From: an uncultured Planctomycetia bacterium
GTDB taxonomy: Bacteria > Omnitrophota > Gorgyraeia > Duberdicusellales > 4484-171
Reading direction: 5' to 3'
NCBI GenBank assembly: GCA_964420965.1
Contig: CAYQUQ010000001.1
Location: 31,544-95,543 of the forward strand
Length of the DNA: 64,000 nt
Position 1 is the stretch's first letter. Each line of letters opens with the position of its first letter. Positions 3,946 through 63,941 of the stretch are shown here, piece after piece. A program made the position numbers and the translations under genes. Under the pieces are notes generated by a model that searched no databases, was not told where the DNA came from, and worked only from the letters and a program-made list of their open reading frames with translations.

Positions 3946-5208
3946 ATGAGAAGGAGAAGTGTTGTTTTTATAGTGATTCTGGCCGTAATCGCACTTTCTT
4001 ACCGGGCCGGTATTTCTTTCGGCCAGGAAGGCGAAAAGAAAAAGGCAGTTAAAAAGGCAGTTAAAAAAGTAATTAAAAAGGATGATTTATATAAAGAGCT
4101 GGAGATCTTCGCCGAAGGATTAGCCGTCATTGAAAAGAAATACGTCGAAGACAAGTCCGCGCAAGACTTAATCTACGGAGCCATGGAAGGGCTGCTGATG
4201 TCCCTGGATTCTTACAGCCAGTTTTTAAGCCCCGATGACTATAAAAACCTTTTAGTGGAAACGGAAGGAAAGTTCGGCGGGTTAGGTATTGAGATTACCA
4301 TCAAGGACGGTTTGCTTACCATCGTCTCGCCTTTAGAAGATACACCGGCATGGAAGGCGGGAGTTAAGGCCAGCGATATAATCGTTAAGATCGAGGGCGA
4401 GTTGACCAAGGGTATTACTTTGAATGAAGCCGTTAAAAAGTTACGGGGCAAACCCGGCACCAAGGTTACCATAACCGTTTTGCGGGAAAAGGGCCGCAAG
4501 CTCGAAGACATAACCATCACCAGAGGAATTATTAAAATAAAAGACATAAAAAGAGCCCTGGTCTTAGAAGACAATATTGGTTACGTGAAAATAGCCGAAT
4601 TTAGAGAGAATACGGCCCGGGATCTGGACAAGGCTTTAGAGAAATTGAATAAAAAAAAGCTCAAAGGTATAATCATTGATTTACGCAATAATCCCGGCGG
4701 GCTGTTGAGCTCAGCCATAGAAGTCAGCAGCCGGTTTATAAAAGACGGGGCCGTGGTCGTATCCACCAAATCCCGCAGTGAAGCGGAGCGGGTGTATAAG
4801 TCCTTGCGGGTCAATAAGAAGTATTTGGATATCCCTTTGGTGGTATTGATAAATAAGGGCAGCGCTTCCGGGAGCGAGATCCTGGCGGCGGCCTTGCGGG
4901 ATAATAAGCAGGCTATTCTGCTGGGGGAGGCAACGTTCGGTAAGGGCTCAGTGCAGACCATAGTACCTTTATCCGACTCTTCGGCGATGCGTCTGACTAC
5001 TTCGAAGTATTATACCCCCACCGGTAAGAGTATTCACGAAAAGGGCATTGAGCCGGATATTCTGGTGACTAAGACCGAAGCCGAAGGCGAGGAAGATGTT
5101 TTTAAAGATCTGGACAAGAAAAAGAAATTCGATTATAAAAAAGATTATCAGATAATCAGAGCCCTGGATTTAATCCGAGGCCTGCTCGTTTTAAAAAACA
5201 GCGAGTAG
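3946..5208 (+). CDS. Carboxyl-terminal processing protease (S41 family) with PDZ domain, signal-anchored
   Basis: N-terminal hydrophobic segment; PDZ-like segment GLGIEITIKDGLLTIVSPLEDTPAWKAGVKASDII; S41 core IIDLRNNPGGLL...GSASGSEILAAAL; RBS AAAGGAGG. Confidence 0.85.
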   Translation: MRRRSVVFIVILAVIALSYRAGISFGQEGEKKKAVKKAVKKVIKKDDLYKELEIFAEGLAVIEKKYVEDKSAQDLIYGAMEGLLMSLDSYSQFLSPDDYKNLLVETEGKFGGLGIEITIKDGLLTIVSPLEDTPAWKAGVKASDIIVKIEGELTKGITLNEAVKKLRGKPGTKVTITVLREKGRKLEDITITRGIIKIKDIKRALVLEDNIGYVKIAEFRENTARDLDKALEKLNKKKLKGIIIDLRNNPGGLLSSAIEVSSRFIKDGAVVVSTKSRSEAERVYKSLRVNKKYLDIPLVVLINKGSASGSEILAAALRDNKQAILLGEATFGKGSVQTIVPLSDSSAMRLTTSKYYTPTGKSIHEKGIEPDILVTKTEAEGEEDVFKDLDKKKKFDYKKDYQIIRALDLIRGLLVLKNSE

Positions 5209-5210
5209 GC

Positions 5211-6203
5211 ATGTACACCCTGGGTATAGAAACTTCTTGCGATGAAACTTCCTGCGCGATTTTAAATAATTTTGAAGTCCTTTCCAACGTTACCCTGTCT
5301 TCTTTAAGAGAGCACAAAAAGTACGGCGGGGTGATTCCCGAAATAGCCACCCGCGCCCACCTTAAGGCTATGGATAGAGTTTTAAAAGAAGCTTCTATTC
5401 AGGCCGATGTGCCCCTAAAGAAAATAGGCCTGATCGGCGCGACCTGCAAACCGGGTTTGATCGGAAGCCTGGTGGTCGGCCTTAACTTTGCCAAAGCCCT
5501 GTCGGTAGCGCTTAAAGTGCCTTTTATAGGAATAAACCATCTCCACGCGCATCTTTTTGCCCCTTTTTTAAATTGTGCGCATAAGTTAAGATTTCCCTTC
5601 TTAGGTTTAGTAATTTCCGGCGGGCATACTGAGATTTACCGCGTCGACGATTTCAATAAGATAAAAACTCTGGGCGAAACTCTCGATGATGCCTGCGGGG
5701 AAGTTTTTGATAAAGTGGCTATGGGCTACGGCTTGGGGTATCCCGGAGGTCCGGTTATTGACCGGCTTTACGACCAGAGATACAGAAAGGATTTTGATTT
5801 TAAATGCGGCCGATCCGGATTTGATTTAAGCTTCAGCGGAATAAAAACCGCCCTTATTTATAAGAGAAACGAACTTAAGGCCAAGGGCCTTTTTGATGCC
5901 AAAACGAAGATAAGGCTTATCTCTTCTTTTCAGTATGCAGTTTGCGAAACGATTATCCGCGCGGCCCGGGAAGCGGCCGCGAAGTTTAAAATAGACCGGA
6001 TAGTCTGCGGCGGCGGAGTCGCCGCCAACAGCTATTTACGCCGCCGCCTGAAAAGTGAAGAAAAAAAGGCCAGATTAGAGATTTTGGTTTCGCCCCGCAA
6101 GTACGCCGGGGATAACGGAGCAATGGTTGCAGGATTAGGGTTTTATCTGTATAATAAAAGGAGAACAAAGAGCCCTCTAAATTTAAGGGCCGAGCCGAAC
6201 TGA
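5211..6203 (+). CDS. tsaD: tRNA N6-adenosine threonylcarbamoyltransferase (Kae1/TsaD family)
   Basis: MYTLGIETSCDETSCAIL; GINHLHAH; VISGGHTEIY; CGGGVAANSYLR. Confidence 0.92.
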   Translation: MYTLGIETSCDETSCAILNNFEVLSNVTLSSLREHKKYGGVIPEIATRAHLKAMDRVLKEASIQADVPLKKIGLIGATCKPGLIGSLVVGLNFAKALSVALKVPFIGINHLHAHLFAPFLNCAHKLRFPFLGLVISGGHTEIYRVDDFNKIKTLGETLDDACGEVFDKVAMGYGLGYPGGPVIDRLYDQRYRKDFDFKCGRSGFDLSFSGIKTALIYKRNELKAKGLFDAKTKIRLISSFQYAVCETIIRAAREAAAKFKIDRIVCGGGVAANSYLRRRLKSEEKKARLEILVSPRKYAGDNGAMVAGLGFYLYNKRRTKSPLNLRAEPN

Positions 6204-11173: not shown

Positions 11174-13514
11174 GTTAATAGCCGGACTGGTTGTTTTGTT
11201 TTCTTTTGGCGTGACAGAAGCCTCCGGCAGCAACCCTTCCGCAGAATCTCTAAGTTCATTCACTGCGCGTTACCACGATTTGACCCTCCGGCTTGAAGAA
11301 GCCGTCGCGGCCGATCCCGATAACCTCGATTTAAGAATAAAGCTGTCCGGATTTTACTGTGATTTCCGGGATTATGAAAAGGCGATCGCCATCCTTAAAA
11401 ATATTGACTCCCGGGAAGCCAAAGTGGTACTGGCTAAGGCTTATGCTAAGCTTAAAGAGCATGATTATGCCATCGAAATCTTTGAGCAGCTTAAACCCCT
11501 TCCCGAGGATCCCGAATATCTTTATCTTTACGGCACGGTTTTAGAGGAGAAGAATTTATTCCCTAAGGCCATCAAAATTTACGCCCGGGTCGGCCCTCCG
11601 TTCGAGCTTAAAGCTAAAGAAAGAGTAAAAAGTATCCGGTTTAAGGTGGAGAAGGAAATTCCCGAAGCGATAGCAAAGATTTCCCGGAAAGCAAAAAGTT
11701 TTCTCAAAAGTATTAAAGATGACGCCGCGGTCTACCTGCTCGTTGACGAAGATATGGAAGTCCGGACCGACAACACCTCTTTGTCTACAGTGCATATTAT
11801 CGAGAAAGTTTTGAAGGAAAGGGGAAAAGAGCTGGCGGAGGTGGAGATTGGCTATGACTCTACTTATCAGCGGATAGAGCTGGAATTCGCCCGTACCATT
11901 ACCAAAGACGGTAAAGTAATTTATGCCGGGAAAGAAAACATTCGGGATATCGGCCGTTATCTTAATTATCCCCTCTACAGTAACTCCCGGGCCTTTATAG
12001 TTTCCATGCCTTCCGTGGATGTCGGTTCTTTCATCGAGTATAAAATAAAAATTTATTCCTCAAAACTGATCAATGAGGACGATTTCACTTTTATTTACCG
12101 CTTGCGGGAAAAATACCCGATATTCCGGGCTGCTTTTCGCCTGATCGTTCCCAAGAAAAGAAAGGTTAATTTTAAATTCTTCAATCCCGATTACGCTAAG
12201 GGTATAAAGCTTAAGCCTTCGGCGAAGATAAAGGGGGATAAACGGATATATTCCTGGAGTTTTAAGAAAATAGACCCGATAGTTCCTGAGTACGCCATGC
12301 CGCCCGTCTCCTTCGTTAACCCGGCAGTGTTGGTTTCCAGTTTTTCGACCTGGGAAGAGATTTATAAGTGGTGGCATTCTCTGTACCGGGATAAAATCGA
12401 GGCTACCGCAGAAATAAAAAGCTTTACCCAAAAACTTATCGCCGGTAAATCCAGCGAACGGGATAAAGCCAAAGCCATCCATGAATTCGTCGCCAAGAAT
12501 ATCCGCTATGTGGCCATCGAATACGGGGACAGCGGCTACGAGCCCCATCGGGCCGAAGAGGTATTCATCAACCGCTACGGCGATTGCAAGGACCAGGCGA
12601 TCTTACTGGTAAGCATGCTGCGGGCGGCCGGATTAAAAGCCTATCCGGTGCTCATCCCGACCCGTAAAGCCTATCCGATCGCCGAAGATTTTCCTTCTTC
12701 TAATTTTAACCACGCTATCTGCGCCGTGGAACTGGGAAAAGAGCTGATTTTCATGGATCCGACTGCCGAAGCCACTCCTTTTGCCCAGATTCCCCTTTCC
12801 GATCAGAAAAGGAAGGTGTTGGTATTTTTTGACGAAACCTACAAAATACTTACCGTCCCTCAGATAAAGGAAAATACAGTGCGCTACGTCATGGATATCG
12901 ACATCAACAGGGACGAGAATGCTACGGTTACAAGAAAGGTATATACACAAGGATTCTTTGCTTCCTCTTACCGCTGGTATTTAAAATATACCCATCCGGC
13001 TATAATCGAAGAGGACATCCGTAAAAAAATGGTCGCGCTTTCCTCGCTTTCCCGCCTTTTAGATTACGTAATAAAGGATGTCGATGATTTTGATTCTCCG
13101 CCTTCACTGGTTTATAAATTCAAGGCCGATAAATTTCTTAATCCGGCCGGTGAATTAAGAATTATCCCGGCTTTAGACGAGGTCTCTTTAAATCATGAGA
13201 TAATCAGTAAGGAGAAAAGAGATTTCCCCGTCGATTTTGAAGGGTTTTACACCAAGCAGGCGGTCATAAAGATCAATCTTCCCGGAAACTTAAAAGTTAA
13301 ATATTTACCGGACGACTTAGGTTTAGAAAATCCCTGGTTTAAGCTTTCTGCATCCTACCAGAAGCTGCCCGGGGCCATTGATTTCCGCCAGGAGCTGACG
13401 GTTAAGAAGAAATTGGTAGCCCAAAAAAATTATCCGGAATTTAAGCGTTATTTCGAGGATGCGCTTTACCGCTTAAAAGAGCAGATTATTTTAAAGAGAA
13501 ACAAACCCCGTTAG
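11151..13514 (+). CDS. Secreted TPR plus DUF3857-like plus transglutaminase-like cysteine-protease-fold protein
   Basis: Signal peptide; N-terminal TPR helices; transglutaminase core YGDCKDQAILLVSMLRAAGLKAYPVLI ... NHAICAVELGKELIFMDPT; 787 aa. Confidence 0.8.
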   Translation: MSSKLSLKLIAGLVVLFSFGVTEASGSNPSAESLSSFTARYHDLTLRLEEAVAADPDNLDLRIKLSGFYCDFRDYEKAIAILKNIDSREAKVVLAKAYAKLKEHDYAIEIFEQLKPLPEDPEYLYLYGTVLEEKNLFPKAIKIYARVGPPFELKAKERVKSIRFKVEKEIPEAIAKISRKAKSFLKSIKDDAAVYLLVDEDMEVRTDNTSLSTVHIIEKVLKERGKELAEVEIGYDSTYQRIELEFARTITKDGKVIYAGKENIRDIGRYLNYPLYSNSRAFIVSMPSVDVGSFIEYKIKIYSSKLINEDDFTFIYRLREKYPIFRAAFRLIVPKKRKVNFKFFNPDYAKGIKLKPSAKIKGDKRIYSWSFKKIDPIVPEYAMPPVSFVNPAVLVSSFSTWEEIYKWWHSLYRDKIEATAEIKSFTQKLIAGKSSERDKAKAIHEFVAKNIRYVAIEYGDSGYEPHRAEEVFINRYGDCKDQAILLVSMLRAAGLKAYPVLIPTRKAYPIAEDFPSSNFNHAICAVELGKELIFMDPTAEATPFAQIPLSDQKRKVLVFFDETYKILTVPQIKENTVRYVMDIDINRDENATVTRKVYTQGFFASSYRWYLKYTHPAIIEEDIRKKMVALSSLSRLLDYVIKDVDDFDSPPSLVYKFKADKFLNPAGELRIIPALDEVSLNHEIISKEKRDFPVDFEGFYTKQAVIKINLPGNLKVKYLPDDLGLENPWFKLSASYQKLPGAIDFRQELTVKKKLVAQKNYPEFKRYFEDALYRLKEQIILKRNKPR

Positions 13515-13536
13515 AGAACGAAGTTCTCTAACGGGG
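13506..13536. repeat. CCCCGTTAGA...TCTAACGGGG hairpin repeat, copy 2 (overlaps the stop codon of the transglutaminase-like gene)
   Basis: ccccgttagagaacgaagttctctaacgggg. Confidence 0.85.
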
Positions 13537-15099: not shown

Positions 15100-15240
15100 C
15101 TCACCTAACACAAAAATCAGCCCCGTTGTAGCTTACAGTTGCCTTCGGTAACTTATCTCTAACGGGGTAAACGGCCTGAGCCCAAGTAATGGAAGGGTCA
15201 GGTGCTTGCCCCGTTAGACCGAAGGTCTAATGGGGGATTG
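15100..15240 (-). promoter_or_regulatory. Structured leader / composite repeat region upstream of the small membrane ORF: degenerate CCCCGTTAGA-family hairpins with UUCG/GAAG tetraloops plus boxes shared with the P2 leader
   Basis: Coding-strand ccccattagacc-ttcg-ggtctaacgggg; gttacc-gaag-gcaac; boxes CACCTGACCCTTCC and GATTTTTGTGTTAGGTGA. Confidence 0.55.
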
Positions 15241-33620: not shown

Positions 33621-33640
33621 GGGCCGGACATGTCCGGCCC
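33621..33640 (+). terminator. Perfect 20-bp palindrome gggccggacatgtccggccc directly after the ACP gene (intercistronic stem-loop)
   Basis: Direct reading; a similar TAGGGGCCG...CGGCCC hairpin follows korB at 63361-63383. Confidence 0.5.
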
Positions 33641-33652
33641 GATACTAAATCA

Positions 33653-34450
33653 ATGAAAATAATAGATATAAGTTTACCCATTGACGATACCGCTTTCGAG
33701 GTGCATCCTTTAAGGATTGAGCGCACTTTGCATCAGGAAGGCGTGGAAAAATTGAATAAAGTGCTTATGTCGCGCACCCCGGAGCAAAAAGCGCAATACG
33801 AAAAGGGTGAGCGGATTATCGAAAGAAAAGATTTGCCGGACGAAGAATTCTTATCCCTGGAGATGGTTTACTCCTCGGTTCACAGCGGGACCCACCTCGA
33901 TTATTCATACCACTACGGCAGTGAATCTGAAGGCCGGCCTTCAAAAACTGCCGATGAGATTCCTTTAGACTGGTGTTATCAAAATGGTGTGAAAATTACC
34001 CTGACTCACAAAAAGGCTGATCAGGTGATTACAGCCCAGGATATCGAAGAAGGTCTTAACAGGATTAATTACCAGATAAAGCCGTTAGACATTGTTTTGC
34101 TGCATACCGGTTGCGATAAACTCTTTGGCCGGTCCGAATATTTCAGCGATTATCCCGGCATTGACGCTTCGGCTATAGATTATTTGCTGGATAAAGGGGT
34201 TAAAATATTCGGAGTTGATACCATGGGCATTGACCGTCCTTATAAATTCATGATCAAAGAATTTTTGGAGAAGAAAAACCCTAAGCATTTATGGCCGTCC
34301 CATTTCCACGGCCGTAAGCGAGAATTTATCCATATCGAAAGATTGGCCCATTTAGATAAATTACCTGATTTGGGGTTTAAAGTAATTTGTTTTCCGGTAC
34401 GGATCAGGCAAACCGGCGCAGCCTGGGCCAGAGCGGTAGCGATTTTATAA
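33653..34450 (+). CDS. Putative cyclase family protein (PF04199-like, kynurenine-formamidase fold)
   Basis: MKIIDISLPIDDT; SVHSGTHLDYSYHYG; GVDTMGID; this family was named for its occurrence in polyketide clusters. Confidence 0.75.
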   Translation: MKIIDISLPIDDTAFEVHPLRIERTLHQEGVEKLNKVLMSRTPEQKAQYEKGERIIERKDLPDEEFLSLEMVYSSVHSGTHLDYSYHYGSESEGRPSKTADEIPLDWCYQNGVKITLTHKKADQVITAQDIEEGLNRINYQIKPLDIVLLHTGCDKLFGRSEYFSDYPGIDASAIDYLLDKGVKIFGVDTMGIDRPYKFMIKEFLEKKNPKHLWPSHFHGRKREFIHIERLAHLDKLPDLGFKVICFPVRIRQTGAAWARAVAIL

Positions 34451-34531
34451 AAGCTTTCAGCTATCAGCCATCAGCTCTCAGCATAGAGATAAAAAAGCTG
34501 ACAGCTGAAAGCAGAAAGCTGATAGCTAAAA
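34451..34531. repeat. CAGCT/AGCTG-rich imperfect palindrome between the cyclase and SRPBCC genes
   Basis: aagctttcagctatcagccatcagctctcagc...gctgacagctgaaagcagaaagctgatagct. Confidence 0.5.
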
Positions 34532-54989: not shown

Positions 54990-55051
54990 GCGAGATTAGG
55001 AATAAAAAAGGCATACTTGTTATTCAGTATGCCTTTTTTTATGGCTAATCC

Positions 55052-55454: not shown

Positions 55455-55503
55455 CCCCGTTAGAAAAGGTTTCTTCTTGAAAAATTAGGCTTTTCTAACG
55501 GGG
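55455..55503. repeat. CCCCGTTAGAAAAG...CTTTTCTAACGGGG hairpin repeat (14-bp stems) in the hup/5-FCL divergent region
   Basis: ccccgttagaaaag gtttcttcttgaaaaattaggc ttttctaacgggg. Confidence 0.85.
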
Positions 55504-59307: not shown

Positions 59308-61182
59308 ATGATTTTAGAAAGAGTTAACTCCCCCCAGGATTTAAAGAACCTTAGTCACGAAGAACTAAAAGCGCTCAGTAGCGAAATAAGAGATTTAATC
59401 ATCGCGGTTATCTCTAAAAAGGGCGGCCATCTGGCTTCTTCCCTGGGTTCGGTGGAGCTCTGTTTAAGCTTACATCACTGCCTTAATACCCCCTGGGATT
59501 CTCTTATTTTCGACGTCGGGCACCAGACTTATGCCCACAAGATTATTACCGGAAGAAGGGAAGCTTTTAATACGGTGCGGGAATATCGAGGAATCAGCGG
59601 ATTTCCCAATTCTAAAGAGTCTGTTTATGATATCTACATTTCCGGCCACGCCTCTACGGCTATCTCCTGGGCCCAGGGTATATCCGAGGCGAAAAAGTTA
59701 AAGAAAGCCGAAACAAAAACAGTGGCGGTAGTCGGAGACGGCTCTTTAACCGGAGGGATGTGCTTTGAGGCTTTGAATTCCTGCGGGCATTCCCAAAATG
59801 ATATTTTAATCGTAGTCAACCATAACGAGATGAGTATTTCGCCCTCGGTAGGGGCTTTAAGTAGTTATCTGACCAAAATAATCTCCGCGCCGATATACAA
59901 CAGAATAAGAAACGAGCTGGAAAGCTTTCTTAAACATTTTTCTTTGATGAAACGGCTGGTTCAGAGAGCCAGAAAGTTCGAAGAAACCATAAAGGGCCTG
60001 GTCGTGCCGGGAATATTCTTTGAAGAGTTGGGTTTTCGTTATTTCGGGCCGATTGACGGGCATGATTTTTCTACCCTGATTCCGACTTTAAAAAACGTTA
60101 TTTCTTTAAAGGGCCCGCGAGTTTTGCACGTCATTACCAAGAAGGGCAAGGGTTATAAGTTTTCCGAGGAGAATCCCGAAGATTTCCACAGTGCTTCCTT
60201 GTTTGATGTCGCCAACGGCGGCTCCTTAAAGGAAAGCCGGGAGAGCTTCAGCGAAGTTTTTGCCCGCAAGCTCATTTCTCTGGCTGAGGATGACCAAAGA
60301 ATTGCGGCCATAACCGCCGCTATGCCCAAGGGTACCGGACTTTATTTATTCGCCCGGAAATTTCCGGATAAGTTTTTTGATGTAGGTATTGCCGAGGCCC
60401 ATGCCGTCGGTTTTGCCAGCGGACTGTCCCGAGGGGGCTTTAAGCCGGTGGTGGCTATATATTCTACATTTTTGCAGCGCTCATTCGACCAGATAATTCA
60501 CGATGTTGCCCTGCAGAATCTGGGAGTTGTGTTCGCCGTTGACCGGGCCGGAGTAGTGGGCGAAGACGGCCCGACTCACCAGGGAGTTTTTGATATCGGC
60601 TACTTGCGGATGATTCCGAACATGGTCTGTATGGCCCCTAAAGATAAAGAGGAGCTTCAGGATATGCTGGAGTTTGCCTGCCGGCTGGATTTACCGGCCA
60701 GTATCCGCTACCCTAGAGGCCAGGCCTATTCTCTGGGCCAGAAGCAGCCTATTGAGCTGGGAAAGGCCCAGGTTATTAAGGAAGGCGATTGTCTCTGCCT
60801 GATTGCCCTGGGTTCAATGGTAAAGACAGGTTTAGAATGCATTTCTTTGCTGGGTCAAGAGGGAATAGACGCCGCATTGATAAACGCCCGTTTCATCAAA
60901 CCTCTGGATGAAGAGCTATTCAGGGGCTTAGCTGAAAAGTTTAAGTTTATCGTCACCCTTGAGGAAGGAAGTTTAGCCGCCGGATTCGGAGGAGCGGTTC
61001 TAGAGTTTTATGAAAGAGAGGGGCTGCTGGAAAAAACAAATTTAGTGCGCGCCGGCCTTCCCGATGAATTTATCCCGGCAGCGACCCGAGAAAAATTACT
61101 GAGCATTTACGGTTTAGATCCTTCCGCTCTCGCCGAGAGGATAAAAAGGTTATTGTCGAATAGAATTGCATGGCAGAAGTAA
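59308..61182 (+). CDS. dxs: 1-deoxy-D-xylulose-5-phosphate synthase
   Basis: 624 aa; TPP motif GDGSLTGGMCFEALN; transketolase-like domains; DVGIAEAHAV. Confidence 0.95.
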   Translation: MILERVNSPQDLKNLSHEELKALSSEIRDLIIAVISKKGGHLASSLGSVELCLSLHHCLNTPWDSLIFDVGHQTYAHKIITGRREAFNTVREYRGISGFPNSKESVYDIYISGHASTAISWAQGISEAKKLKKAETKTVAVVGDGSLTGGMCFEALNSCGHSQNDILIVVNHNEMSISPSVGALSSYLTKIISAPIYNRIRNELESFLKHFSLMKRLVQRARKFEETIKGLVVPGIFFEELGFRYFGPIDGHDFSTLIPTLKNVISLKGPRVLHVITKKGKGYKFSEENPEDFHSASLFDVANGGSLKESRESFSEVFARKLISLAEDDQRIAAITAAMPKGTGLYLFARKFPDKFFDVGIAEAHAVGFASGLSRGGFKPVVAIYSTFLQRSFDQIIHDVALQNLGVVFAVDRAGVVGEDGPTHQGVFDIGYLRMIPNMVCMAPKDKEELQDMLEFACRLDLPASIRYPRGQAYSLGQKQPIELGKAQVIKEGDCLCLIALGSMVKTGLECISLLGQEGIDAALINARFIKPLDEELFRGLAEKFKFIVTLEEGSLAAGFGGAVLEFYEREGLLEKTNLVRAGLPDEFIPAATREKLLSIYGLDPSALAERIKRLLSNRIAWQK

Positions 61183-61409
61183 GGATAAAAAATAAATTAG
61201 GCTGCGCAGTAGCAATCGATAAAGATAGATGCAAGGGGTGCCAGCTTTGCATTTTTTACTGTCCCACCAAACATTTAAAACTTTCCTCAAAGTTAAACAA
61301 AAGGGGAGTTAAGTTTGCTCAGATTAAAAGCGAAGATTCCTGCACCGGCTGTGGATTTTGTTTCCTCATCTGCCCCGAAAGCTGCATAGAAGTTTATGAA
61401 AATAAATAG
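61170..61409 (+). CDS. 2x[4Fe-4S] ferredoxin, delta subunit of a 2-oxoacid:ferredoxin oxidoreductase
   Basis: CKGCQLCIFYCP and CTGCGFCFLICP. Confidence 0.88.
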   Translation: MAEVRIKNKLGCAVAIDKDRCKGCQLCIFYCPTKHLKLSSKLNKRGVKFAQIKSEDSCTGCGFCFLICPESCIEVYENK

Positions 61410-61512: not shown

Positions 61513-62625
61513 ATGGTGGGTAATGAAGCCATAGCCGAGGCGGCGATCAGGGCGGGCTGCCAGTTTTATGCCGGTTATCCGATAACCCCCCAGAACGAAT
61601 TAATAGCTTATATGGCCCGGAGGATGAGAGAGGAGAAACGGGTATTCATCCAGGCAGAGAGCGAAATAGCCGCGATCAATATGGTTCTTGGGGCGGCCGC
61701 TACCGGAGCAAGGGCCATGACTACTTCTTCTTCCCCGGGAATTTCTTTAAAGCAAGAAGGTATTTCCTATCTAGCCGGGGCCCAGCTTCCGGCCGTAATA
61801 GTCAACGTGATGCGGGGCGGCCCGGGCCTGGGCAATATCGCTTCCAGCCAATCCGATTACTTTCAAGCTACCCGCGGCGGCGGCCACGGAGATTACTTCA
61901 CTTTAACCCTTTCTCCCTGGAGCGTAGAGGAGGCCGTTCGGCTTACCTCTCTGGCTTTTGATTTAGCTGATCGCTATAGAAACCCGGTGTTGGTTCTGGC
62001 TGATGCCATAATCGGGCAGATGATGGAACCGGTTTCCTTCCGCCTATGCAGGGAACGGTCGCGACCGTTCCCTGCAAAAACAAAGAAACCCTGGGCCTTG
62101 ACCGGAGCAGAAAAAAGGCCGCCCAATGTCGTAAAGTCTTTTTTCTTAAGAGAAGGCGGCCTCGAAGTTCACAATGCGCGCTTGAAAAACAAGTGGGCCC
62201 GGATTAAGGTCCGGGAGCAGAGATTTTCGGTTTACCCCGTTAGAAAAGAATTTTCTAACGGGGCACGTAAAGCCAGCAAAGTCCGATTCCTAGCGGTTGC
62301 CTACGGTTCCCAGGCCCGAATAGTCAAAGAAGCAGTAGACAGTTTAAGAAATGAGGGGGTAAATATCGGGTTGTTTAGACCCGTAACTCTCTGGCCTTAT
62401 CCCAAGAAAGGCTTAGTCAGAGCGGCGAAAGAAGTAGAGAAGATTCTTGTCATCGAGCAATCATTGGGGCAGATGCTGGAAGATGTACAGCTGACTTTGC
62501 CGGGGAAAGAAATCCTTTTTTTAGGCAAAGCCGGCGGAGGGGTCCCCTCCGTTACCGAAATTGTCAAATTTGTAAAAAAGAATGTAGGGGCCGCAGATCT
62601 GCGGCCCGTACAAAATAAATTATGA
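61513..62625 (+). CDS. 2-oxoacid:ferredoxin oxidoreductase alpha subunit (KorA/PorA family) carrying two in-frame palindromic repeat elements
   Basis: MVGNEAIAEAAIRAGCQFYAGYPITPQNEL; start moved to 61513 because 61411-61496 is a repeat element; in-frame elements at 62047-62076 and 62235-62263. Confidence 0.85.
   Translation: MVGNEAIAEAAIRAGCQFYAGYPITPQNELIAYMARRMREEKRVFIQAESEIAAINMVLGAAATGARAMTTSSSPGISLKQEGISYLAGAQLPAVIVNVMRGGPGLGNIASSQSDYFQATRGGGHGDYFTLTLSPWSVEEAVRLTSLAFDLADRYRNPVLVLADAIIGQMMEPVSFRLCRERSRPFPAKTKKPWALTGAEKRPPNVVKSFFLREGGLEVHNARLKNKWARIKVREQRFSVYPVRKEFSNGARKASKVRFLAVAYGSQARIVKEAVDSLRNEGVNIGLFRPVTLWPYPKKGLVRAAKEVEKILVIEQSLGQMLEDVQLTLPGKEILFLGKAGGGVPSVTEIVKFVKKNVGAADLRPVQNKL
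62047..62076. repeat. Perfect 30-bp palindrome tgcagggaacggtcgcgaccgttccctgca inside korA (encodes RERSRPFPA)
   Basis: Direct reading; near-copy agcagggagcggtctcgaccgttccctgct at 26132-26161 in the giant ORF also encodes ERSRPFPA. Confidence 0.9.
62235..62263. repeat. CCCCGTTAGA...TCTAACGGGG hairpin repeat, copy inside the korA coding sequence (in frame, encodes YPVRKEFSNGA)
   Basis: ccccgttagaaaagaattttctaacgggg. Confidence 0.85.
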
Positions 62626-63356
62626 AAAAGAAGTTCAGCCGTCCCCAATCCTTAAAAGACGTAAGCACCCACTATTGTGCCGGCTGCGGCCACGGTATTC
62701 TGCACCGCTTGGTGGCCCGGGCCGTTGATGAGTTAGGGGTGCGCGAAAAAACAATCGGAGTCGCTCCTGTGGGCTGCGCGGTTGTGGCCTATGATTACTG
62801 GAATTTTGATCTGGCCGAGGCTGCTCACGGAAGAGCTTTAGCCGTAGCCACGGGGATAAAGCGCTGCCGGCCGCAAAATATGGTATTCACTTATCAAGGT
62901 GACGGCGATTTAGCCTCTATCGGAACGGCCGAAACCCTGCATGCGGCTAATCGCGGCGAGAATTTAACCTGCATTTTTGTCAATAACGCCTGTTATGGTA
63001 TGACCGGCGGGCAAATGGCTCCTACTACGCTTATCGGACAGAAAACTACCACTACCCCCTGGGGTAGAGACCCTTCTGCCGGCGATGGCTGGCCGTTGAA
63101 ACTAAGCGAGATCTTGTCGGTCCTTCAAGGGGTTAACTTTATTGTCCGGACGGCAATAAGTAATCCTGCCGGGGTTAAAAAAACTTACCAGTATATCCAG
63201 AAGGCATTCCGTAACCAGATCGAGAAAAAAGGATTTTCTCTGGTCGAGGTTTTAAGCCCCTGTCCGACCATCTGGCGGATGAATCCGGTTGAATCAGTTC
63301 AATGGATAGAAAAAGAAATGACCAAAGAGTTCCCCTTAGGTGTCATTAAGGAATAA
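62622..63356 (+). CDS. 2-oxoacid:ferredoxin oxidoreductase beta subunit (TPP-binding)
   Basis: YCAGCGHGILHR; GDGD TPP motif; 244 aa. Confidence 0.9.
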   Translation: MKKKFSRPQSLKDVSTHYCAGCGHGILHRLVARAVDELGVREKTIGVAPVGCAVVAYDYWNFDLAEAAHGRALAVATGIKRCRPQNMVFTYQGDGDLASIGTAETLHAANRGENLTCIFVNNACYGMTGGQMAPTTLIGQKTTTTPWGRDPSAGDGWPLKLSEILSVLQGVNFIVRTAISNPAGVKKTYQYIQKAFRNQIEKKGFSLVEVLSPCPTIWRMNPVESVQWIEKEMTKEFPLGVIKE

Positions 63357-63389: not shown

Positions 63390-63941
63390 ATGGCAATGAA
63401 AACCGAAATCTTAATTTCCGGGTTTGGCGGCCAGGGTTTGATGCGCTTGGGGAAGATTATGGCTCAGGTTGCTCTGGATGAAAACAAACATACCAGCTGG
63501 TTTCCCTCTTACGGCGCAGAGATGCGGGGAGGAACCGCCCATTGTTTTGTCAAGATTTCTTCGGCGCCGATAGCCTCACCCCTGGTGGAATTTCCCGATA
63601 TATCCCTCATTTTTAATCAACCCTCTCTGGATAAGTTCGCCCCCAGGCTAAAAAATAAAAGTTTGCTAATCATAAATACGGATTTAGTCAACGGTTTCTT
63701 GAGCCGCGGGGATGTTCAAGAAATCGGCTTACCCTTAAACAAATTAGCTTTAGAGTGCGCCAGTTTACGGGTAGCTAATATTGTCGCGTTAGGATTTTTA
63801 ACCGCCTTTAAAAACAATCTGTTCAAGGAAGAAACCGTAGTTAAGGTTCTTAAGAAGGTTTTTGATAAAAAGGAGAATTCAGAAGTTAATCTTAAAGGAT
63901 TCTATAAAGGCAGGGATTTTTTTCGCCAGTTTAGCAAGTAG
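63390..63941 (+). CDS. 2-oxoacid:ferredoxin oxidoreductase gamma subunit
   Basis: ILISGFGGQGLMRLGKI; 183 aa. Confidence 0.88.
   Translation: MAMKTEILISGFGGQGLMRLGKIMAQVALDENKHTSWFPSYGAEMRGGTAHCFVKISSAPIASPLVEFPDISLIFNQPSLDKFAPRLKNKSLLIINTDLVNGFLSRGDVQEIGLPLNKLALECASLRVANIVALGFLTAFKNNLFKEETVVKVLKKVFDKKENSEVNLKGFYKGRDFFRQFSK

Follow-up and report, generated by a model that had tools for sequence, protein, structure and literature searches.

A 29-nt palindrome inserted in frame in a korA gene, probably a copy of a very small MITE-like mobile element

Selfish palindromes that colonise genes in frame are known best from Rickettsia. Rickettsia palindromic elements (RPEs) are selfish palindromic repeats, which often lie in frame in various unrelated protein-coding genes, where they are translated into additional loops (PMC10969869). 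Repetitive extragenic palindromes (REPs) are described as extragenic repeats with a GTAG/CGTC tag (PMC3733652). We analyzed a 64-kb stretch of DNA (contig CAYQUQ010000001.1; the whole stretch is called the window hereafter), in which a 29-nt palindrome lies in frame in korA, the gene for the alpha subunit of a 2-oxoacid:ferredoxin oxidoreductase. This palindrome, at positions 62235-62263 of the window, is likely one copy of a family (F1) of very small, non-coding mobile elements that resemble transposable elements of the miniature inverted-repeat kind (MITEs), and was likely inserted in frame.

The insertion in korA

The korA gene (61513-62625, forward strand) encodes a protein of 370 amino acids (aa) from the start MVGNEA. 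The protein, with the Pfam domains POR_N and PFOR_II, shares its operon with the delta, beta and gamma subunits, and represents the alpha subunit in a 2-oxoacid:ferredoxin oxidoreductase of four subunits (VorB/KorA type). It matches the structures 1yd7 (E 1e-55) and 8ys5 (E 3e-52) in PDB. A database protein of 370 aa with the MVGNEA start at 61513 (P0001) is 100% identical to it. The relatives of P0001 are Omnitrophota proteins with the source names VorB or KorA and, judging from the names of these homologues, the host would be a member of Omnitrophota.

The F1 element in korA/vorB (62235-62263) is an exact match to the pattern CCCCGTTAGA-N(4-30)-TCTAACGGGG, and consists of a perfect 13-bp stem and a 3-nt loop. 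The fold as RNA was calculated at -19.1 kcal/mol (z -5.5). The DNA reads GTT TAC [CCC GTT AGA AAA GAA TTT TCT AAC GGG GCA CGT] AAA, where the brackets enclose the insertion, and is read as Y-PVRKEFSNGAR-K within the open reading frame (ORF) of POR_N and PFOR_II. An earlier note on this DNA, which had placed the palindrome inside the alpha subunit and in frame, was correct in this respect. The encoded peptide that spans the inserted loop is FSVYPVRKEFSNGAR.

In the alignment with orthologues, a gap was found exactly opposite PVRKEFSNGAR in 20 of 20 Omnitrophota proteins (65-74% identity), between a near-invariant Tyr and a Lys. The insertion thus delimited by the gap in all 20 orthologues comprises 33 nt or 11 codons (62236-62268, forward strand; residues 242-252 of 370). 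These 33 nt correspond to the 29-nt element and 4 nt, CACG, in the place where the duplicated target recurs in other F1 copies. In the DNA of two orthologues (L121 and L122), the empty site reads GAA TAT AAA and TGT TAT AAA, with TAT directly followed by AAA. The earlier note had proposed this alignment as its own test, with equivalent residues in orthologues as the outcome that would speak against an insertion; no such residues were found. Its expectation of a linker longer by 20-25 aa was too high, since the surplus over the orthologues is 11 aa at F1 and 3 aa about 40 residues upstream.

The homologous structures 1yd7 and 8ys5 differ in length at this site. Thus, the site belongs to a variable interdomain linker. 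In the AlphaFold model of the korA product, residues 242-257 form a coil between the strands 238-241 and 258-262, with a predicted local distance difference test (pLDDT) score below 50 at residues 247-252. This model is poor (mean pLDDT 63, 21 sequences) and was used only for the statement that a coil lies between two strands. Three other assemblies contain the identical korA gene, and the hairpin is therefore not an assembly artefact. Four samples contain this genome (3300009320, SRR8062331, SRR9166041 and the source of the window).

The element probably entered a G-TTTA-Y site in the linker between domains I and II, where the codons for Tyr and Lys adjoin. The element (29 nt) and a 4-bp target duplication would together have added 33 nt to korA. 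Because 33 nt were added and the frame in use has no stop codon, korA would have stayed open and gained a loop of 11 residues, which would be tolerated. The copy is presumably neutral or nearly so, and not adaptive.

Structure, spread and reading frames of the F1 family

The genome scan was performed with the pattern CCCCGTTAGA-N-TCTAACGGGG on one genome per species (596 Gb). At least 120 loci (133 copies) were detected, against about 17 estimated by chance from 20 specified bases, 31 gap lengths and 596 Gb. The pattern was also detected at 21 loci of viral contigs. The family statistics below rest on the matches listed. By record title, the genome loci among the matches listed belong to Patescibacteria (30 loci), Omnitrophota (27), Planctomycetota (20), Desulfobacterota or 'delta proteobacteria' (10), Nitrospirota (9) and others such as Elusimicrobia, Bacteroidota, Bacillota and more (24). 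Contigs between 30 kb and 2 Mb in length carry many of these loci. Among the carriers are the complete genome of Candidatus Velamenicoccus archaeovorus LiM (NZ_CP019384.1) and contigs of 1-2 Mb from Omnitrophota and delta-proteobacteria. The 10-bp ends of F1 are common to six or more bacterial phyla and to viral contigs.

A spread to archaea was considered and rejected. The two archaeal-labelled contigs (L055 and L065, labelled Aenigmatarchaeota and Methanosarcinales) are short. A TonB-like gene and a chemotaxis operon of the bacterial type, with genes for CheY, CheB, CheD, CheR and a methyl-accepting chemotaxis protein, are present in them. They are probably mis-binned bacterial contigs.

The ends of F1 are an invariant 10-bp terminal inverted repeat (TIR), CCCCGTTAGA/TCTAACGGGG, and the element as a whole may be described as this TIR around a short, variable, mostly self-complementary interior. 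The first base may be T (TCCCGTTAGA...TCTAACGGGA), and the general form of the ends is [CT]CCCGTTAGA ... TCTAACGGG[GA]. The copies measure between 24 and 146 nt, with 29 nt as the most frequent size, and no member contains an ORF of its own. The four nucleotides before CCCC and after GGGG were identical in 72 of 137 copies and matched at three of four positions in 21 more, where about 4% is expected from the flank composition. The commonest duplications are TAAA/TTTA, which rank at the top, TGAA, TCAA and CGAG; with the neighbouring bases, the target consensus is symmetric (R-YNNR-Y). Sixteen of the 137 copies had no matching position in the flanks. Since this number exceeds what simple decay predicts, a second route or later rearrangement is possible.

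Larger members of 55-146 nt with perfect duplications exist, and copies are found within copies. In one contig (L119), a 29-nt copy with a TTAA duplication is nested in a larger copy, and tandem copies have a common CTCA. Nesting was also observed in L053 and L060. An identical 29-mer with an asymmetric loop, CCCCGTTAGATAGTAAACATCTAACGGGG, occurs at three unrelated sites with the duplications TTCA, TGAA and TAAA, respectively, and a 40-mer occurs twice, with one base of difference, in one metagenome-assembled genome (MAG). These identical short units at separate sites suggest that the short units themselves were inserted. F1 is an inserted sequence with inverted repeats, 4-bp duplications, a target consensus, nesting and, as described next, a bias of frame within genes.

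Two of the three reading frames of F1 are open (PVR...SNG or PLE...LTG), and the third contains TAG. Among 134 non-redundant copies, 28 (21%) lie within long ORFs. A length of 2 mod 3 was found in 27 of these 28 copies, in comparison with 51 of the 106 copies elsewhere (Fisher p = 8e-7). With this length, the element and its 4-bp duplication add up to a multiple of three, and the frame is preserved. Even outside ORFs, the 2 mod 3 class is enriched over one third (p = 0.002). A TTTA duplication is predicted to give ...VY-PVR...SNG-VY..., and this peptide was found in L102 and L072. In NadE of Thermodesulfovibrionales, PLENISLTG lies in the interdomain linker, where gaps are present in PDB 5kha. 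Other in-ORF examples are HolB, ComEC and radical-SAM proteins.

F1 copies were also observed in Planctomycetota, in leader peptides of the DUF1559/prepilin type (L040 at 2511-2545 and about 4136-4216, L071 at 2236-2288, and L104). They duplicate GFT of the cleavage motif GFTLIELLVV, for example GFT-PLEIRRCFLTG-FTLIELL. Some leaders contain two tandem copies, and the mature protein would stay unchanged. The idea that the TTTA preference is a mere effect of the prepilin motif GFTLIEL was rejected, as only 3 of 158 copies adjoin this motif.

In a Patescibacteria MAG (L106), two 41-nt F1 copies (5363-5403 and 6035-6075) stand around the gene for ribosomal protein L5; the flanks of the pair are similar, and the interiors are reverse complements of each other. 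Five related viral contigs (L126, L128, L131, L133 and L141) carry, at the same locus, a 29-nt F1-like hairpin that is flanked by inverted AAGC...GCTT and has no direct repeat.

Conserved enzymes (KorA/VorB, NadE and HolB) and prepilin leaders acquire lineage-specific loops from F1 hairpins, which can also provide a gene with its stop codon. In MAGs, these hairpins will mislead gene calling, alignment and structure prediction.

Further copies and palindromes in the window

The pattern CCCCGTTAGA-N(4-30)-TCTAACGGGG was searched in the window, with 100 dinucleotide-preserving shuffles as the null. Four exact matches were detected, whereas 0 are expected from the shuffles. When one mismatch with one arm was allowed, the only further site was the one which the earlier note had described as a degenerate, compound copy at 15150-15235. 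The site is degenerate, as stated there, but it is not a single compound copy; it consists of two copies, 15121-15167 and 15209-15235. With four exact and two degenerate copies, the note's count of at least five hairpins in the window holds. All six copies fold into stems of 12-15 bp (-19 to -26 kcal/mol, z -4 to -8.5). Perfect hairpins with a stem of at least 10 bp numbered 11 in the window and about 0.65 in the shuffles.

A 30-nt copy (583-612) follows the TGA stop of a sigma-70-type gene and precedes the ribosome-binding site (RBS) of the next gene; its flanks, TGAA/TAAA, match at three of four positions. The 31-nt copy at 13506-13536 (flanks CAAA/TAAA) overlaps the end of the upstream transglutaminase-like gene of 787 aa, and its first nucleotides (13506-13514) serve as the two final sense codons (P, R) of this gene and as its TAG stop. 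Removal of 35 nt, the element and 4 nt, restores ...LKRNK-TAG, 10 nt before the next start codon. Of the degenerate copies, that of 47 nt (15121-15167, left arm CCCCGTTGTA) lies between the convergent era and protease genes, and that of 27 nt is at 15209-15235 (right arm TCTAATGGGG). The 49-nt copy at 55455-55503 is located in the divergent region between an HU-like gene on the reverse strand and a 5-formyltetrahydrofolate (5-FTHF) cyclo-ligase gene. Its 14-nt arms are the same as those of the korA copy, and its interior is 21 nt. These copies are probably F1 insertions at A/T-rich tetranucleotides, at or near gene boundaries.

The earlier note had described most copies as terminator-like. On the strand transcribed with the flanking genes, no T-tract was found behind the window copies, whose tails are TAAAGGAG, TAAATAGC, CTTATTGT and CACGTAAA. 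The terminator consensus scan flagged only the copy at 13506, on the reverse (wrong) strand, and weakly the copy at 15209, and the total of sites in the window was equal to the shuffle expectation. Thus, the description as terminator-like is not supported. The RBS context GGGGTAAA, which the note had seen behind copies, was indeed found after the copies at 583, 13506 and 15158. A classic two-way intrinsic terminator, AAAAAAGGCATACT-N8-AGTATGCCTTTTTT, was observed at 55004-55039, directly after an rsmB-like gene, and shows the appearance of real terminators in this genome. Rfam scans with gathering thresholds and tRNA scans of the window gave no matches.

korA contains two more palindromes in frame. 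One is a perfect palindrome of 30 nt without a loop (62047-62076), which encodes CRERSRPFPA and falls in the variable stretch where this protein exceeds the orthologues by 3 aa. Its 28-nt core, GCAGGGAACGGTCGCGACCGTTCCCTGC, belongs to a family named F2 here, and is identical in a viral contig (L157, 9737-9764), where it lies in an unrelated ORF and in another frame. The arms of F2 are GCAGGGAACGG/CCGTTCCCTGC, and at least 120 loci were detected in the metagenome scan, against about 2 by chance. Among the matches listed, a size of 28-29 nt prevails in F2, and the target is not duplicated. The other palindrome, TGTAGGGGCCGCAGA-TCTGCGGCCCGTACA (62583-62612), is 30 nt long with 14 of 15 positions paired. 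It encodes VGAADLRPVQ, and makes up most of a C-terminal extension of korA that the orthologues do not have. Both palindromes start with TGYAGGG. No copy of the palindrome at 62583 was found in the viral contigs searched. The palindromes at 62047 and 62583 could be insertions or local inverted duplications.

The other subunit genes of the operon are located on both sides of korA. The gene for the delta subunit (61170-61409), which is ferredoxin-like, precedes that of the alpha subunit, and the genes for the beta subunit (62622-63356) and the gamma subunit (63390-63941) follow it. The beta and gamma subunits are the thiamine pyrophosphate (TPP)-binding ones, and the Pfam domains among these neighbours are Fer4, TPP_enzyme_C and POR. 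Elsewhere in the window, a perfect 20-nt palindrome, GGGCCGGACATGTCCGGCCC, unrelated to F1 and F2, is present at 33621-33640 (about 0.06 expected by chance in 64 kb), and a cluster of inverted and direct repeats of the AGCTATCAGC / GCTGAAAGC type (28-nt arms, 82% complementary) is present at 34453-34531, just 3' of an ORF that ends at 34450.

Explanations for the hairpin and comparison with known elements

As for the movement of F1, integration would occur through a 4-bp staggered cut of the target and strand transfer, in the manner of a DDE transposase supplied in trans. Several results weigh against an origin of the korA hairpin by such an insertion. The flanks of the korA copy, TTTA and CACG, match at 0 of 4 positions, though the 13-bp stem is perfect. 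The left side, GTT TAC (V-Y), fits the expectation from a TTTA duplication, but the right side, GCA CGT (A-R), does not. The copy may be an old insertion, in which the stem was maintained by selection or by self-templated correction or repair while the tetranucleotide drifted; alternatively, the insertion may have arisen by a route that makes no duplication. Furthermore, even the nearest orthologue has just 74% identity, which leaves the insertion undated, and none of the sequences compared was a near-identical empty allele. Neither an autonomous element nor a recurrent transposase was detected within the roughly 0.8 Mb of sequence that surrounds 120 copies. When 688 ORFs from the 120 loci were clustered, only housekeeping families and no recurrent transposase appeared. 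The ORFs between paired F1 copies encode ribosomal protein L5, a Clp-like ATPase and similar proteins, and no mobilising enzyme. Where two arms with matching flanks stood 54-4000 bp apart, they always belonged to separate small copies or to a member of 55-146 nt; all single F1 arms had a degenerate partner nearby. In addition, to our knowledge, a duplex of 24-29 bp is too short for any known DDE transposase to join both ends. The proposed enzymology is therefore a poor fit for the smallest and commonest members, and the movement of F1 may follow a single-strand hairpin route or depend on an unfamiliar enzyme.

Four other explanations were compared with that of an inserted F1 copy. The short hairpins might be in-place deletion remnants of longer F1 elements (50-150 nt or more), which were trimmed by replication slippage promoted by the hairpin, so that the first insertion in korA was a larger element, likewise in frame. 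Palindromes are prone to deletion, the longer members have the same ends and duplications, and the 49-nt window copy shares its 14-nt arms with the 29- and 30-nt copies. However, independent trimming would not yield identical products such as the asymmetric-loop 29-mers, each with its own duplication, at three unrelated sites, or the near-identical 40-mers at two sites of one MAG. We consider this explanation unlikely. That the korA hairpin is kept for a structural function of the RNA or DNA, such as a site for RNase processing or protein binding or a pause of translation between the domains, would agree with the contrast between a perfect stem and adjacent 4 nt that diverged at every position, with the location exactly at a domain boundary, with the two further stable palindromes in korA and with the same sequence in four assemblies. 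On the other hand, none of the 20 orthologues needs the hairpin, no Rfam family matches it, and F1 is also found in unrelated genes, in intergenic spacers and in many phyla; a function of this kind is quite improbable.

The size of F1 (24-53 nt) and its hairpin form would suit REP/REPIN-type repeats spread by a RAYT (Y1 HUH) enzyme, and a single-strand route on hairpins has the advantage that ends only 29 bp apart need not be brought together. REPs are lineage-specific, whereas the ends of F1 recur across phyla. F1 has 4-bp direct duplications of variable sequence, which REPs are not known to have, it does not have the GTAG or CGTC tag, and one fifth of its copies are inside genes. Moreover, the flanking tetranucleotide was unrelated to the interior in about a dozen copies compared by eye, without a statistic. 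With these differences, there is only a slight probability that F1 is a REP-type repeat. A native linker that is palindromic by chance, or an assembly artefact, can practically be dismissed: the linker is variable in this protein family, but the residues are absent from all 20 orthologues, four copies were found where 0 are expected, and independent assemblies have the identical sequence. Two more candidates were rejected. In integron attC sites, the GTTRRR and YYYAAC halves stand in the opposite order, as judged by direct reading of the sequence; a guide model in the style of IS200/IS605 was dismissed on the comparison, by eye, of flank tetranucleotides and interiors in the same dozen or so copies.

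Beyond the insertion of an F1 copy in korA, a wider idea is more tentative. F1, and perhaps F2, might represent a new class of oligonucleotide-sized mobile DNA, in which units of 24-33 nt, each hardly larger than a single hairpin, are cut out, likely as single-stranded or snap-back hairpins, and integrated with a 4-bp staggered cut by an enzyme not yet linked to any insertion sequence (IS). The units would spread between phyla, possibly on phages, and their lengths would be biased to keep the frame. We regard this as possible but doubtful. If it is true, no transposable unit smaller than these would be known, and they would serve generally as a source of new loops in proteins of uncultivated bacteria. 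If the 29-nt unit is the mobile unit, as the identical units with their own duplications suggest, its movement is not easily explained by known transposase architectures.

In the literature, the arm sequences matched only primers and chance sequences, and a description of F1 is absent from the searchable literature, which does not extend to subscription journals. Nothing relevant was found on MITEs in the phyla that bear F1. F1 is an ultra-short, MITE-like and coding-compatible hairpin family of several phyla, previously undescribed in the searchable literature.

Like the bacterial MITEs Correia, Nezha, ERIC and RUP, F1 is non-coding, with TIRs, a target-site duplication, dispersed copies and nesting. 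TIRs, a duplication of fixed length, a series of sizes and nesting are the marks of a MITE. F1 is short and non-coding, has TIRs and a duplication of fixed length family-wide, and occurs as dispersed identical units; in structure, it is a MITE save for the parent IS. It differs from MITEs in that its commonest members (24-33 nt) are far under the usual 50-500 bp and contain little beyond two inverted repeats, that the search of about 0.8 Mb around 120 copies gave no parent IS, and that the ends are identical across phyla. The ends of the IS1380 family begin with CC(C) and its duplication is 4-5 bp; the eukaryotic relative piggyBac uses a TTAA target. The F1 ends (CC...) and the A/T-rich 4-bp duplication fit these values in a manner that is consistent but not specific. 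The piggyBac end CCCTAGAAAG resembles the F1 end CCCCGTTAGAAAAG, and this serves as a lead only. In contrast to piggyBac, the F1 target is YNNR (mostly TAAA) and not strictly TTAA, and no transposase was linked to F1 here.

F1 resembles REPs and REPINs as a short hairpin of 20-40 nt with many copies, often at gene ends. However, the duplication is present, the ends are CCCC without the tag, and 21% of the copies are in ORFs, so F1 falls outside the definition of REPs; F2, without a target duplication, is closer to them. The GC-cluster palindromes of yeast mitochondria are short and mobile, and can sit in frame in a protein gene (var1). F1 may be likened to these clusters, and the compartment, the composition and the sequence are different.

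F1 is like RPEs in its in-frame insertion into unrelated ORFs (28 of 134 copies in ORFs). RPEs are about 100-150 bp long, are restricted to Rickettsia and have a conserved peptide in each family, whereas F1 is 24-146 nt long, occurs in many phyla, and has a 10-bp TIR and a 4-bp duplication. F1 is not a member of the RPEs, whose description sets it apart by size and host. The earlier note had compared the korA copy with these selfish in-frame hairpins. This comparison is apt for the behaviour, as F1 bears the marks of a dispersed mobile element and about one fifth of its copies are in frame in genes, but not for membership, given the size and the host. RPE-like behaviour is found here in a free-living candidate phylum, with an element about five times smaller.

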